A DNA stretch of 64,000 nt from Minisyncoccota bacterium (GCA_036400935.1 DASWWW010000001.1:118375-182374); one strand, 5' to 3'; positions 6,418-40,993 are shown, counted from the first letter of the stretch. The notes: a model not told the origin generated them from the letters alone. Numbers and translations: made by a program.

Positions 6418-8004
6418 ATGACTAAGAAAATCATCGTCTCGGCCCTTTTCGCAGCCGTACTCTTGGGCGGAGTCCAGAGAGCGGAAGCAATGTCTTTCTC
6501 GGAGCTTATTGAGTTTCTTATAAACGCCGGAATTATAGCGCAGAATAAGGCTGCCGAAGCTCGCGCGGCCATAGCCGTAGGCACGGGTCAGCAGTCGAAC
6601 TGCCATATGTTCAATTCGAACTTTGGGGTAGGGTCGGGCGGGCCGGACGTAGCCGCCTTGGGCAAGATCCTTGCCAAGGAGGGGCTGCGTAGCGTTGCTG
6701 GCAATTCCTATGATGAGGAAATGGCCGCTTCAGTCGTGAGCTTTCAGGCGCGCTACGGCATACCATCGACAGGATATGTTGGTCCGCTTACTAGGGCGCA
6801 TCTCAATCAGGTGTCGTGCTCGCCTGCGTCGAGCTCGAAATCTGCGCCAGCGGCCAGTTCGATCCCTGCTTCTGTTCCAGCAAAGCCGGCGGCCACTATC
6901 ATTTCCGCTCCGGTCGTGCTCGCGCCCGCGCCGGGCAGCGTTTGGGACGTAAACGGGAACTATACCGTCAAAATCCAGTTTCCATCGCAAGAATCGGGAA
7001 AAGTCGCGAAGCTTGGCCTAAGCATTTGCCCCGCAACATTTGGCAGCTGTTACATTTTGGAATCGTATGACTCGAGGCTGCCTCTCGGTCAGAATCCCAT
7101 AGCCGAAGTCCCATGGTCCTCGATCAGGGAAATGAATACGAGCATTGCTCCTGGAAAGTACAAGCTTGCCGTCGTCGTGAACGATTCCGATCACTACAAC
7201 AACATATCGGTTGATGGCGGGGAATTCACCGTGACCGGCAGCTTTACACGGCAGGCTTCGCAACAGCCGCAGCCTTCTGGTGACTCGAGCTCGATGGCAC
7301 AGGACTGGTCGGCAACGTCGTTTGTTGGATACTCTCTCGTGAGGGACCTTTCGATTGGTTCTTTGGGGCGCGACGTCGCAATCCTCCAGGATTTTCTTTG
7401 GACAAAATCTTTCTTGCAGATGAGTTCCGGCGTCGTGCACGGCTCTTTTGATCAGGCTACGGCCGATGCGCTTTCCAGGTACCAGGTTTCTGTTGGACTC
7501 TCAGCAAGCGGTTCCGTAGGATCTCTTACGAGGGCGTCTCTCAATACGGCTTTTACATCACAGGCCCCCAATTCTGTTGCCGTTCCCGCTTCAAATCCAG
7601 CAAGCAGTCCGATGCCGCAGGTGTCATGTCCTCAGTCCGTGAGTCTCCCGGGATTTACGCTCACCCTTGAGCCGTGTGAGATTGTTAATGCTTCCTTGAC
7701 CGACGAGCAAGGGGATTTGAAGTTCAAGGTAAGGATCACCGCGAGCGATCCGGGCGCTTCTTTTTCCTTCTATGCATCCTATGCCTCAACTGTCGGTTTT
7801 CCGCCCTATTCGGTTTTGATGGGATCGGGCGCCACTGTGGGCGGCGCAGAATTCGACCTGACTTTCGTTGAAGGTATGCTTTCGGCTAACGGATCTGAGC
7901 CGCGAACATATAGCGGCTATTTGCCAATAACCGTCCTCGATCCCAAGGAGAACAAAGCTTATCTTTATATGAGGCTCAACCTTACGGTAAATCCTGCGAA
8001 CTAG
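6418..8004 (+). CDS. secreted protein with two PG_binding_1 (peptidoglycan-binding) domains, inserted between rpsJ and rplC
   Basis: It has a signal peptide and a conserved N-terminal module (SFSELIEFLINAGIIAQNKAAEARAAI). It also has PG-binding-like segments (GPDVAALGKILAKEGL...GYVGPLTRAHL and GRDVAILQDFLW...VGSLTRASL). Confidence 0.75.
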   Translation: MTKKIIVSALFAAVLLGGVQRAEAMSFSELIEFLINAGIIAQNKAAEARAAIAVGTGQQSNCHMFNSNFGVGSGGPDVAALGKILAKEGLRSVAGNSYDEEMAASVVSFQARYGIPSTGYVGPLTRAHLNQVSCSPASSSKSAPAASSIPASVPAKPAATIISAPVVLAPAPGSVWDVNGNYTVKIQFPSQESGKVAKLGLSICPATFGSCYILESYDSRLPLGQNPIAEVPWSSIREMNTSIAPGKYKLAVVVNDSDHYNNISVDGGEFTVTGSFTRQASQQPQPSGDSSSMAQDWSATSFVGYSLVRDLSIGSLGRDVAILQDFLWTKSFLQMSSGVVHGSFDQATADALSRYQVSVGLSASGSVGSLTRASLNTAFTSQAPNSVAVPASNPASSPMPQVSCPQSVSLPGFTLTLEPCEIVNASLTDEQGDLKFKVRITASDPGASFSFYASYASTVGFPPYSVLMGSGATVGGAEFDLTFVEGMLSANGSEPRTYSGYLPITVLDPKENKAYLYMRLNLTVNPAN

Positions 8005-38230: not shown

Positions 38231-39589
38231 ATGAAAAAGACCCTGCCTTTGATCGGTTTGTGCTCGCTCACGTTGGTTGCCGGAATGACTTTCTTTACGA
38301 GCGGCGACCCTGCGTCCGCAGCTATCGAGACCTGCGATGCTGGTTCCGACATGAGCTATCACCAGGCCAAGGAGGCTATGGCGAGCGGGGAGCTTTCCCT
38401 GACGTATAATCCCGATACGTCGGCAAACAGGGTAACGGTAAACATTCAGAACAACACTCCGTGCTCAGTGCCACTCAGCCTCAGCACCTATAGGATGTTC
38501 GGACCATACGATCCGGCCACCCAGTCCCAGCAGCAGTTCTATGCCGGCACGGGCGTTTTCAACGTAGCGGCAAACTCGGGAGCGACATTGGAGGCTGACA
38601 TTCCAACTTGCGCCGCTCAGTACGACGTATGGTATGGATCAGCCCCTCAGGTCATCCCTGACAACGAGGTCTATGGCAGCATCATGTTCGGCGATCATGT
38701 CCGACAGGATCAGTACTGCCAGCTTCCCCCAGCGACTCCGGTGACCGCGACCCTTTCGGCGAATGCGTCTTGCATCGTCCCTGGCGCGACCGTCCAATTC
38801 ACGGCTAATTTCGCGGGAGGCTCGATCGGCTCAAAGACCCTCGAGAAGGATACCAATGCCGATGGGGCATACGGCGAGGTTGCGTCATGGGGACCTGGGC
38901 CTGGAACTCATGTGTATACCGAGGTTACTGATGCGAACTATTCGGGAATCTATTCTGCTCGACTGATGGCGGACGGCACCGAGATCGTGCGGACGAATGT
39001 CACGGTTGACGCGTCGTGCGCGCCGGTCGTGCCGCCTCCCGTAGTCCCTCCGCCGGTCGCAGCTCCTATCACGGCGAACCTCGCTCCTGAATCCGTCTGC
39101 ATTGTCCCTGGCGCTGTCGTATCGTTCACCGCGAATGTGAATGGGGACGGCATCTCGTCGAAGACTTTGGAGAAGGATACCAATGCTGATGGGTCATTCG
39201 GCGAAGTCGTAGCCTGGGGAGCGGGTGCGGGCACTCATACATATACCGAGGGTCTCGACGCAAGCTACACGGGCGTCTACACCGCACGCCTCATGGTCAA
39301 CGGCAATGAGATGTCTCGCCAGAATGTGACAGTAGATACGGCCTGCGGACCGGCTGTAGTCGTTCCGCCTCCAGTAGTACCTCCGCCGCCAGTCGTCCCA
39401 CCTCCTGTCGTCCCTCCGCCAGAGCCGCCGATCGTCCCTACCAATACGGGAGACGGCCCGATCACTCCTCGCGGAGGCGGCAGCGGACGCAGCGGAGGAC
39501 GAAGCACTCCAGTTCAGCCGGTGGTCATAACTACAACTGATTTCGTTCCGGGCCTTCCTGATACCGGACTTCCTCCACGAAGGCGCTAA
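38231..39589 (+). CDS. secreted surface protein with two homologous Cys-bounded repeats, Pro-rich (PPPVVPPP) linkers and a C-terminal LPDTG motif that lacks a hydrophobic anchor
   Basis: It has a signal peptide. Two roughly 95 aa repeats (C.VPGA.V.FTAN..G..I.SKTLEKDTNADG.[FY]GEV..WG.G.GTH.YTE..DA.Y.G.Y.ARLM..G.E..R.NVTVD..C.P) match repeats in 1678..4524. The protein ends ...FVPGLPDTGLPPRRR. Confidence 0.75.
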   Translation: MKKTLPLIGLCSLTLVAGMTFFTSGDPASAAIETCDAGSDMSYHQAKEAMASGELSLTYNPDTSANRVTVNIQNNTPCSVPLSLSTYRMFGPYDPATQSQQQFYAGTGVFNVAANSGATLEADIPTCAAQYDVWYGSAPQVIPDNEVYGSIMFGDHVRQDQYCQLPPATPVTATLSANASCIVPGATVQFTANFAGGSIGSKTLEKDTNADGAYGEVASWGPGPGTHVYTEVTDANYSGIYSARLMADGTEIVRTNVTVDASCAPVVPPPVVPPPVAAPITANLAPESVCIVPGAVVSFTANVNGDGISSKTLEKDTNADGSFGEVVAWGAGAGTHTYTEGLDASYTGVYTARLMVNGNEMSRQNVTVDTACGPAVVVPPPVVPPPPVVPPPVVPPPEPPIVPTNTGDGPITPRGGGSGRSGGRSTPVQPVVITTTDFVPGLPDTGLPPRRR

Positions 39590-39600
39590 TATCACCTCCT

Positions 39601-40200
39601 ATGTCCAAGCTCTCATTAGGCGCTCTCATAGCTTTCATTATCCTGTGCGCCTTGTCGCCGATCGCCCTCTTCTTTATCGTGCCTCGCGCCAATGTCGAGG
39701 CGCGGGCCGCGACTGCGGTGACGGCGGCTATCGAAAAGCCGGCAGAGGAGATCGTGCGCGCCGAGCTTCCGTCCCGCATCCGCATCCCGCGATTGGGCAT
39801 CAATGCGCACCTCGAGCATGTCGGCATAAAGGCTGATGGCTCGCTCGACGCGCCAAAGGATCCGTTCAATGCGGCGTGGTTTGCCGGCGGCCCTCGCCCT
39901 GGCGAGATCGGCAGCGCCGTCATCGACGGCCATTACGGATGGATAGACGACGTGCCTGCGGTTTTCGACAACCTCAACTCGATCGTGAAAGGGGACAGGA
40001 TATACGTCATTGACGTCACGGGCTCGACTACGGCTTTCACGGTGACGGAAGTCCGCGTATTCGATAAGGATGCCGACGCCACGTCTGTATTCGTATCGAA
40101 TGACGGCAAAGCCCGCCTCAACCTGATTACCTGCGAGGGGGCGTGGAACGAGACGACTCAGAAGTACTCCGGACGGCTCGTAGTTTTCGCCGAAAAATAA
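39601..40200 (+). CDS. sortase (membrane-anchored transpeptidase)
   Basis: It has an N-terminal TM anchor, a catalytic His (VIDGHYG), a TLxTC-type Cys (NLITCEG) and a downstream Arg. Confidence 0.85.
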   Translation: MSKLSLGALIAFIILCALSPIALFFIVPRANVEARAATAVTAAIEKPAEEIVRAELPSRIRIPRLGINAHLEHVGIKADGSLDAPKDPFNAAWFAGGPRPGEIGSAVIDGHYGWIDDVPAVFDNLNSIVKGDRIYVIDVTGSTTAFTVTEVRVFDKDADATSVFVSNDGKARLNLITCEGAWNETTQKYSGRLVVFAEK

Positions 40201-40201
40201 T

Positions 40202-40993
40202 ATGTTCATCATTCCATTCTCAATGCCTATGTTCCCGCCGACCGAGCAGATAGCCTACTCGGAGATCCGCTCGCCATCGAGCGTGCCTCAGGGCTTGCCT
40301 GTGCGGCTGAAGATTCCCGATATCGGCGTCGATTCCTTGATCGAGGATGCTCTCGTTACTTCCGACGGACGCATGGATGTTCCTGCGGGATCAAAGAATG
40401 TCGCGTGGTACGCCCTTGGCCCAAAGCCGGGCGAAGTGGGGAGCGCCGTCATCGGCGGCCACTACGGCATCAGCAACGGCGTGAAATTCGTTTTCTATGA
40501 TCTCGACAAGCTCACTATCGGCGATATCGTGCAGGTCGTCGACGATAAGGGCGACATTCTGACATTCAAAGTCAGGGCAGTAAAATTGTACAAGCGCGAC
40601 GCCGACGCCACTGAGGTATTCACCTCGCGTGATGGCCTGGCGCACCTCAACGTGATTACCTGCGAGGGCGCATGGAATCAGAAGAACGGCACGTACGACG
40701 ACCGCCGCGTGGTATTTACCGACCTCGTGACCGAGGGCAAGGTAGCGGGCGCCGCAACCTCGAAGGCTGAGGTGTTTCCGCGAGAGCTGTCGCTCGGTAT
40801 GAGTGGATCGGACGTCGCGGCCCTCCAGCTTATCCTCGAGAACAAGGGTTTCCTGAAGATTCCGCCGGGCACGAAAAAAGGCTACTTCGGCGTGATGACC
40901 AAAGCAGCCCTTGTGACGTATCAGAGGATCGCGAGCCTGCCGGCGACCGGCTATTTCGGCCCGCTGACCAAGTCCAAGATGCTCGGACTCTAG
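40202..40993 (+). CDS. sortase-domain protein fused to a C-terminal PG_binding_1 domain; no N-terminal TM segment
   Basis: The sortase core (VIGGHYG...NVITCEG) is paralogous to 39601..40200. The C-terminal region (LSLGMSGSDVAALQLILENKGFL...GYFGPLTKSKM) is peptidoglycan-binding-like. Confidence 0.75.
   Translation: MFIIPFSMPMFPPTEQIAYSEIRSPSSVPQGLPVRLKIPDIGVDSLIEDALVTSDGRMDVPAGSKNVAWYALGPKPGEVGSAVIGGHYGISNGVKFVFYDLDKLTIGDIVQVVDDKGDILTFKVRAVKLYKRDADATEVFTSRDGLAHLNVITCEGAWNQKNGTYDDRRVVFTDLVTEGKVAGAATSKAEVFPRELSLGMSGSDVAALQLILENKGFLKIPPGTKKGYFGVMTKAALVTYQRIASLPATGYFGPLTKSKMLGL

Follow-up and report, generated by a model that had tools for sequence, protein, structure and literature searches.

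How could a sortase process a surface protein whose sorting signal lacks the very part that should hold it in the membrane? This question is raised by positions 38,231 to 40,993 of a 64,000-nucleotide stretch of Minisyncoccota bacterium DNA (GCA_036400935.1 DASWWW010000001.1:118375-182374; the whole stretch is called the window here, and positions are counted from its first letter), in which the gene of a putative sortase substrate is followed by two sortase genes. In the textbook view, the hydrophobic segment of a sorting signal is needed to retain the precursor for processing. The anatomy of the locus, the pairing of its genes, the conservation of the short tail, the purifying selection on its motif and the recurrent, independent loss of the anchor are established by the results below. 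The explanation towards which we lean is a functional short-tail sorting signal handled by the adjacent class-F-like sortase, which would give a wall-linked, probably partly shed beta-sandwich surface protein. The novelty is that, in Patescibacteria, anchored paralogs have repeatedly given rise to a short-tail sortase signal; a functional precedent, the AbpA-SrtB pair, has already been published. The features on which the argument turns are the following:

38231-39589, + strand: substrate open reading frame (ORF), 452 amino acids (aa), ending in the tail FVPGLPDTGLPPRRR and a stop; the same end, shown longer, is TTTDFVPGLPDTGLPPRRR, then TAA at 39587-39589
39542-39589, + strand: short-tail sorting signal, FVPG-LPDTG-LPP-RRR and TAA, with LPDTG at 39554-39568 (aa 442-446) and the hydrophobic segment absent
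39590-39600, + strand: spacer of 11 nucleotides (nt) from the substrate stop to the ATG of sortase 1
39601-40200, + strand: sortase 1, 199 aa, class-F-like, with the N-terminal transmembrane (TM) segment LGALIAFIILCALSPIALFFIV at about aa 6-27 (39616-39681)
39931-39933, 40132-40134 and 40174-40176, + strand: catalytic His111, Cys178 and Arg192 of sortase 1
40202-40993, + strand: sortase 2, 263 aa, starting one base past the stop of sortase 1, with a Sortase domain at aa 36-176 (40307-40729) and a PG_binding_1 domain at aa 201-260 (40802-40981)

An earlier, sequence-only reading of this DNA had described a 452-aa protein ending in LPDTG-LPPRRR-stop without a hydrophobic anchor, and the translation and coordinates of the ORF bear this out. 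Only six residues (LPPRRR) come after LPDTG, so there is no room for a hydrophobic stretch; the peptide spanning the short tail is DFVPGLPDTGLPPRRR. Measured against the canonical signal, the tail has the LPXTG-type motif and the positively charged end (RRR), and the hydrophobic segment of about 15-25 aa is missing: the post-motif Kyte-Doolittle maxima, which are 2.0-3.5 in anchored relatives, have no counterpart in the window protein, which offers no hydrophobic window at all. That is to say, the tail looks like a canonical signal of the Candidate Phyla Radiation (CPR) minus its hydrophobic core, with the motif, G-LPP and RRR kept. Among the real ORFs of the window, the substrate is the only one terminated by LPxTG, and the eight aligned family members all conform to the pattern [LFY]P.[TA]G[LFY][PAG]P, so that LPDTG is not a chance match. 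Moreover, since the post-motif G-[LFY]-[PAG]-P is invariant family-wide and also common in other CPR substrates, an extended recognition on the primed side is suggested. The C-terminal basic ends of the relatives read RKR, RRR, RNRGSVHR, RK and RWSK.

Relatives of the locus were sought with the sortase alignment in a degenerate-pattern scan of 185,579 species genomes; 362 relatives were confirmed and the best 80 kept, and all of these best 80 belong to CPR/Patescibacteria or to unclassified or uncultured metagenome-assembled genomes (MAGs), under labels such as Saccharibacteria, Paceibacterota, Parcubacteria, Minisyncoccia and similar. The closest relative, among the same best 80 of 362, is locus L010 (contig CAYJAC010000002.1), which is syntenic with the window over a ZIP transporter, an opposite-strand desaturase-like gene, the substrate, sortase 1, and sortase 2 with its peptidoglycan (PG)-binding domain; over codon alignments, the amino acid identity between the two is 67% for the substrate and 72% for sortase 1. 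The substrate homologs came from a protein search, and in all of their contigs examined a sortase gene lies directly downstream of the substrate gene. The C-terminal ends of the family are of two types:

short-tail type, window: LPDTGLPPRRR, stop
short-tail type, L010: LPDTGYAPRKR, stop; spacer to the sortase 13 nt
short-tail type, P0005/L094: LPDTGYAPRRR, stop; spacer 18 nt
short-tail type, P0001/L005: LPDTGLPPRNRGSVHR, stop; spacer 6 nt
short-tail type, P0007/L002: FPSTGFAPRWSK, stop; 4-nt overlap with the sortase
short-tail type, P0003/L006: YPNAGFAPRK, stop
canonical type, P0002: FPKTGFGP-LMKIIPLNVLMISLILALGIVSFGVDCF-RKRRV
canonical type, P0004: FPDTGFAPREK-EILLNISMIASFLLLIFGVIGLT-KKNKK...
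canonical type, P0006 and P0009: LPDTGFGPLGK, TM segment and basic tail
canonical type, P0010-P0016 and P0024

With these ends at hand, it can be asked whether an assembly error, a sequencing frameshift, a nonsense pseudogene or a recoding site masks a normal anchor, as the sequence-only reading had allowed. Such lesions do occur in MAG assemblies: in L011 (FPNTGLPPRGSSTP, stop) a TM-like segment stands in another frame right after the stop, and L063 is apparently frameshifted. Since both were flagged, the method is able to detect lesions, and none was detected at the window locus. The comparison of homologs that the earlier reading had proposed shows the LPxTG-type motif without a TM segment to be conserved in L010, L094, L005, L002 and L006. 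The same tail is thus found in independent assemblies of the closest, species-level relatives, including three of one species, in which P0007 is identical (L002-4). In every short-tail locus the sortase starts between -4 and +18 nt from the substrate stop, and each sortase carries its own TM segment, so that no anchor-coding remnant can be accommodated; in the window, the 11-nt spacer holds no such remnant and the sole downstream TM segment is that of sortase 1. The latter belongs to the sortase itself, because homologous helices open the sortases of loci whose substrates are canonical: the LSPIALF core of its helix recurs in the sortase of L007, whose substrate P0004 is fully anchored. As for read-through, the prediction that it would fuse no genes holds, since a second in-frame stop, TAG at 39617-39619, follows nine codons downstream of TAA, and stop-codon read-through is ruled out by it. 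The lesion has therefore not been borne out; we give it next to no credence, and the missing anchor as an artefact is effectively refuted.

A frameshift or fusion between the substrate and sortase 1 was considered as a separate candidate. A one-base skip after LPDTG reads ...SSTKALISPPMSKLSLGALIAFIILCALSPIALFFIVPR..., which is sorting-signal-like, but this candidate is ruled out by three observations: all relatives keep the frame through G-[LY][PA]PR+, the sortase frame contains TGA at 39559-39561, and the TM segment is homologous to sortase N-termini.

If the short tail is real, the next point is whether its motif still does anything. Between the window and L010, dN (nonsynonymous substitutions per site) is 0.26, 0.22 and 0.17 for the three genes, synonymous sites are saturated, and only 36% of the identical residues share a codon. 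FVPGLPDTG is nevertheless invariant in the window, L010, L094 and L005, with L094 and L005 differing at most third codon positions, and the residues just before the motif are unconserved (TTTD, VTGA, IAEA and PSMT). Nothing else in the C-terminal half of the substrate is as well conserved as the motif. Since a dead motif would not survive such divergence, the motif is evidently functional in the anchorless state, and the short-tail motif, to judge from these alignments, is under purifying selection. The FVPGLPDTG codons of the window (39542-39568) and L010 (4941-4967) are identical at 8/9 positions, the highest 9-codon stretch in the gene (P~0.002 per window of nine codons); a constraint at the nucleotide level was considered and dropped, because L005 and L094 use different codons and the 8/9 match is probably due to chance.

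The history of the anchor was read from a neighbour-joining tree of the N-terminal domain (200 bootstraps, only 135 aligned positions). Bootstrap values are 97% for the window, L010 and P0005, 92% for P0003 with P0007, and 86% for joining the canonical P0004 to the window clade as its sister, while all anchorless proteins form a single clade in 0/200 replicates. The anchor was thus lost, on this tree, at least two times and probably three (the window clade, P0001 and P0003/P0007), and with each loss the motif was retained with a cluster of basic residues right behind it. The same design is also met outside the family. A census of CPR loci yielded 67 sortase ORFs with a motif-bearing ORF immediately in front; of these substrates, 60 (about 90%) were canonical, 6 were clean short tails and 1 was apparently frameshifted. 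The short tails of the census include two from unrelated families, both directly upstream of sortases: L047 2077-2349 (90 aa, FPNSGFPPQN, stop) and L051, minus strand 1944-2954 (VPNTGLR, stop). A further short-tailed protein of an unrelated family, L049 88-1950 (LPNTGFPPEINQK, stop), lies about 600 nt upstream of a sortase and was left out of the count. The short-tail state is therefore a recurrent minority design in CPR sortase operons.

The sequence-only reading had held that homologs with a normal anchor would speak against the missing one, and such homologs do exist (P0002, P0004, P0006 and P0009-16). They do not overturn the finding, because the anchored proteins represent the sister state, out of which the anchorless forms developed. 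Its proposal of a non-canonical sorting signal has gained from the conservation of the motif under saturated synonymous divergence and from the recurrent independent origin, and the processing itself stays a prediction from the alignments.

As for the enzymes, Pfam confirms the two predicted sortases, of which the first indeed opens with its own TM anchor; the spacing differs slightly from the 12 nt first given, since the ATG stands 11 nt past the stop. Sortase 1 matches PF04203 (Sortase) with E=1.3e-21 and 77 bits, and sortase 2 with 4e-18 and 65.8 bits (gathering cutoff 26.6), in addition to PG_binding_1 with 3.9e-12. The catalytic His, Cys (TLxTC-type) and Arg, that is, GH111, LITC178 and R192, do not vary in the two sortase alignments (9 and 11 sequences), which include both window genes. 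The best class for both is NCBIfam class_F_sortase (NF033748), with 126.4 bits for sortase 1 and 114.1 bits for sortase 2, which is below the curated cutoff of 166, so that the enzymes can be called class-F-like and no more; among solved structures, the best match of sortase 1 reaches only E=3e-5. Like the class F sortases of Actinobacteria (e.g., Cutibacterium acnes), they have the His-Cys-Arg set, and sortase 1 is short and single-domain with an N-terminal TM segment; unlike them, they score below the cutoff, their relatives (best 80 of 362) are CPR or uncultured MAGs, and sortase 2 lacks a TM segment and bears PG_binding_1 at its C-terminus. Sortase 1 and the substrate probably form one operon and are perhaps translationally coupled, and sortase 2 is probably part of the same operon; scanning the locus for promoters and terminators gave no useful information. 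The spacer at 39590-39600, TATCACCTCCT, gives on the mRNA strand an anti-Shine-Dalgarno sequence (CACCUCCU) and not a Shine-Dalgarno site, and the spacers in L010, L005 and L094 are unrelated to it.

The substrate carries the following parts in front of its short tail:

38231-38320, + strand: putative signal peptide, aa 1-30, N-terminus MKKTLPLIGLCSLTLVAGMTFFTSGDPASA, then A; MKK, hydrophobic core and ASA before A, read from the sequence
38321-38725, + strand: N-terminal domain, a beta-sandwich (aa 31-165) containing four invariant Cys; strands in the AlphaFold2 model at a predicted local distance difference test (pLDDT) score of 75-90
38735-39346, + strand: two immunoglobulin (Ig)/FN3-like repeat domains, aa ~169-263 and ~277-372, each with a TLEKDTNADG loop and with a short Pro-rich linker between them
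39347-39541, + strand: disordered stalk, Pro/Val-rich and Gly/Arg-rich, aa 373-437, of the wall-spanning-region kind; pLDDT <50 for residues 374-452

By inspection, the leader reads as one of the Sec type, with MKK, an 18-residue hydrophobic core and ASA before A; AlphaFold2 places a helix at residues 5-23, and in the alignment the same leader layout is common to all homologs and directly precedes the invariant Cys35. The model, built on an eight-sequence alignment (mean pLDDT 68), consists of the signal helix, the N-domain at residues 35-160, the repeats and disorder from about residue 370. The two repeats of about 95 aa share about 60% identity, and there are (V/P)-rich repeats besides; their strands lie at 172-259 and 281-368 (pLDDT ~80-88). 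The Pro-rich stalk is found in all family members, anchored or anchorless. This layout is characteristic of adhesin-like proteins displayed on the wall. The substrate has no family match in Pfam or NCBIfam, and Foldseek against the PDB with the substrate model returned only generic macroglobulin, FN3 and Ig-like beta-sandwich arrays and the biofilm matrix protein RbmA, that is, no functional lead. A profile of the N-domain found 389 representative proteins at E<=1e-3, many of them large and multidomain; a word-indexed search gave no match with the N-domain alignment and P0005 alone with the N-terminal half, and a scan of metagenome DNA gave four loci, none both new and complete. The repeat loop LEKDTN[AGS]DG[SAVG][YF][GA][EQ] (window 38840-38870 and 39170-39200), near-invariant in the members that carry repeats, resembles the DxNxDG calcium-binding loops of FG-GAP or thrombospondin-type repeats.

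A sorting signal of this kind is not entirely without example, and owing to the AbpA-SrtB precedent the finding is less unprecedented than the sequence-only reading had assumed. In the oral streptococci S. parasanguinis and S. gordonii, the signal of AbpA is LPKTS followed by the three residues AVK, without a hydrophobic domain, and the adjacent SrtB anchors AbpA to the wall, while AbpA is found in the supernatant as well (Liang et al. 2016, Sci Rep 6:30966, PMC4974636). A dedicated srtB invariably comes after the abpA gene, this pairing is kept among relatives, AbpA forms an SrtB-dependent ladder on the wall, and its fold is a coiled-coil with an alpha/beta domain (PMC4974636). The window system resembles it in two respects: LPxT[G/S] is followed by a few residues (AVK there, LPPRRR here) and no hydrophobic domain, and the substrate gene has its own sortase gene behind it, in a conserved pair (window, L010, L094, L005, L002-4 and L006). 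The differences are that AbpA-SrtB comes from Firmicutes and the present system from CPR/Patescibacteria; that beta-sandwich arrays on a Pro-rich stalk replace the coiled-coil and alpha/beta domain; that LPDTG-[LY][PA]PR, with the basic cluster retained, stands in place of LPKTS; that the class-F-like sortase of the present system is far removed from any solved one; and that the short tail here arose repeatedly from anchored paralogs. The window system may thus be likened to AbpA-SrtB by analogy, and would not be a member of it by descent; for AbpA, it is proven by experiment that such a tail can direct wall anchoring with partial release. AbpA-SrtB is also the only experimentally studied exception to the hydrophobic-segment rule found in the literature searched, and passing mentions were all that was found there on sortases in CPR/Patescibacteria.

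With the canonical tripartite signal the window substrate shares LPxTG, the basic tail, the Pro-rich wall-spanning region, the adjacent sortase and, probably, the N-terminal signal peptide, and differs from it by the absence of the membrane-spanning hydrophobic segment of about 20 residues. Naturally truncated LPXTG proteins are secreted, such as the premature-stop variants of Listeria InlA and the FnBPs of S. aureus Newman; these are recent, strain-level lesions in which anchoring is abolished. Here too a sortase substrate has lost its membrane-anchoring part through a 3'-terminal change in its gene. Whereas the whole signal is lost or disabled in those cases, the window family precisely keeps the motif and the basic tail, conserved across species and repeatedly evolved.

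The mechanism towards which we lean would then run as follows. In a CPR/Patescibacteria bacterium, the substrate, three beta-sandwich domains on a Pro-rich stalk, would be exported by the Sec route with a minimal signal, in which the recognition element [F]VPG-LPDTG-[L/Y][P/A]P is directly followed by the basic tail RRR, the TM segment of the sister proteins having been deleted. Membrane-anchored sortase 1 would cleave between Thr and Gly and transfer the cleaved substrate to an acceptor, presumably in the cell wall. Because nothing retains the precursor in the membrane, capture would probably be incomplete, so that part of the protein would be wall-linked and part shed. Recognition and cleavage of the short tail by sortase 1 seem the most economical explanation of a motif under selection, with a dedicated sortase paired to the substrate in all six anchorless loci and the stalk retained without an anchor. 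Several points weigh against this reading. The processing is predicted here from sequence, as for CPR sortases generally. In the classical S. aureus system, as Schneewind et al. (1993, cited in PMC4974636) are reported to have found, anchoring was abolished and secretion followed when the hydrophobic domain (in protein A) or the charged tail was removed. The TM segment is kept in about 90% of CPR sortase-adjacent substrates, hence the anchor is normally needed in CPR too, and the motif could be conserved for some role apart from recognition by a sortase. The sampled family has few members (six without an anchor and about eleven with one), and the tree has the few positions given above.

The first of the competing explanations is that the substrate is a purely secreted, sortase-independent isoform: loss of the TM segment would have turned a wall-anchored adhesin into one that is set free, and LPDTG...PR+ would be kept for something else (to serve as a binding site or as a structural cap, for example) or would merely be trimmed by the sortase. 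The classical deletion experiments, in which anchorless LPXTG proteins were secreted, the abundance of AbpA itself in the supernatant, and the several anchor losses, which fit selection for release, all agree with it. A free protein, however, has no need of the motif or of a wall-spanning, Pro-rich stalk, and the motif is the best conserved part of the C-terminal half despite synonymous saturation, with a dedicated sortase kept beside each anchorless gene; we know of no alternative function for LPxTG. We regard this explanation as rather unlikely. Even less weight is given to a sortase-catalysed ligation between proteins, in which the substrate would form a pilus- or ladder-like polymer or be cross-linked to another surface protein and a membrane-retained precursor would matter less. 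Tandem Ig-like beta-sandwiches with a dedicated adjacent sortase are typical of pilins, AbpA forms its ladder on the wall through SrtB, and the TLEKDTN of each repeat offers an invariant Lys. Yet no pilin motif (YPK) or E-box was recognised in the substrate, which also has no TM segment; the N-domain has no invariant Lys; and P0005, which lacks the repeat domains and hence their Lys, has the same tail and sortase nonetheless. To our knowledge, all sortase-assembled pilins so far have full tripartite signals. Taken together, this makes ligation improbable.

Another possibility moves the reaction from the membrane into the wall. Both the substrate and sortase 2 of the window and L010 lost their TM segment, and a PG-tethered sortase 2 might ligate the soluble substrate to mature peptidoglycan, either of the cell's own wall or of the host cell's. 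Sortase 2 has no N-terminal TM segment, a point that the sequence-only reading had overlooked; among about 100 CPR sortase ORFs in the fetched loci, the only complete ones of this kind are window sortase 2 and its L010 ortholog (L010 5603-6394), another apparent case being cut by a contig end, and this absence falls in the same lineage in which the substrate is without a TM segment. The L009 ortholog of sortase 2, which follows an anchored substrate, has a TM leader, and the conserved N-terminus of sortase 2, MFI[IV]PF[SF]MPMFPP, aligns just past it. In sortase 2 the catalytic triad is complete, and a comparison of the window with L010 gives dN 0.17 with saturated dS (synonymous substitutions per site) for the gene, which means purifying selection. 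On the other hand, sortase 2 has no recognisable signal peptide, which leaves its export unexplained, and the anchorless substrates of L005, L002 and L006 adjoin only an ordinary TM-anchored sortase, so that sortase 2 is not needed for the short-tail state. Wall-resident sorting is accordingly doubtful, about as improbable as the ligation between proteins. A broader conjecture would have the whole sortase system uncoupled from the membrane, with substrate and PG-binding sortase 2 both without TM segments and ligation within the wall, or onto the host cell wall of a CPR epibiont, instead of to lipid II at the membrane, and with CPR generally switching adhesins between anchored and short-tail forms as a recurrent strategy; this we consider a long shot, only a little less doubtful than the two preceding explanations.

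The favoured short-tail signal, handled by sortase 1, would have several consequences. The same solution (motif, a few residues and a dedicated adjacent sortase) would have evolved repeatedly in a different, uncultured radiation, where the state of the anchored ancestors persists in sister genes, and this offers a natural comparison of anchored and anchorless forms for testing the contribution of the TM segment. Predictors of sortase substrates that require a TM segment would miss real substrates, about 6-9% of the sortase-adjacent CPR candidates in this sample being of this type. The system would also be relevant to the display or shedding of adhesin-like proteins by episymbiotic CPR cells, and the conserved post-motif G-[FLY]-[PAG]-P, together with the compact enzymes, may interest protein-ligation engineers.

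Some minor observations concern the sortases. A programmed frameshift fusing sortase 1 and sortase 2 was rejected as a candidate, because the window (TAA-T-ATG, +1) and L010 (TAA-GC-ATG, +2) agree neither in the stop/start spacing nor in the relative frame. The C-terminus of sortase 2 (window 40937-40993) reads SLPATGYFGPLTKSKMLGL before the stop, and that of L010 SLPPTGYFGPMTRAKMEGR: an LPxTG-like motif is followed by [FY].GP without a TM segment, which resembles substrate tails such as LPDTGFGPLGKS. The same end also matches the PG_binding_1 consensus (Lp.dG..G..T), and a coincidence is possible.

As for the surroundings, the window has 54.8% GC, a transfer-messenger RNA, two tRNAs and no rRNA. 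In L010, 3' of the sortases at 6438-7505, there is a protein with an Ice_binding domain that ends in FPATGFSPRAGGEEWLGMFSIFRF and a stop; only about 10 weakly hydrophobic residues come past its motif, which may be an intermediate or a degenerate anchor. The window has no Ice_binding gene, and a minus-strand PspC/DUF2807 gene stands in that place. L002 (8261-8908) and L007 (1811-2446) encode a separate secreted protein with PG_binding_1 and an FN3-like domain (Pur_ac_phosph_N), and their substrate-sortase pairs are also flanked by a two-component system (response regulator, histidine kinase and PAS), which suggests a regulated, wall-associated module. Finally, CPR genomes contain a second sortase type of about 370-740 aa, which has an N-terminal TM segment and, like a substrate, its own C-terminal LPxTG, TM segment and basic tail:

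L023 4958-6082: substrate-like sortase
L041 6549-7757: substrate-like sortase
L065 3691-4947: substrate-like sortase
L030 5411-7633: substrate-like sortase
L026 6516-7727: substrate-like sortase
L079 3-491: substrate-like sortase

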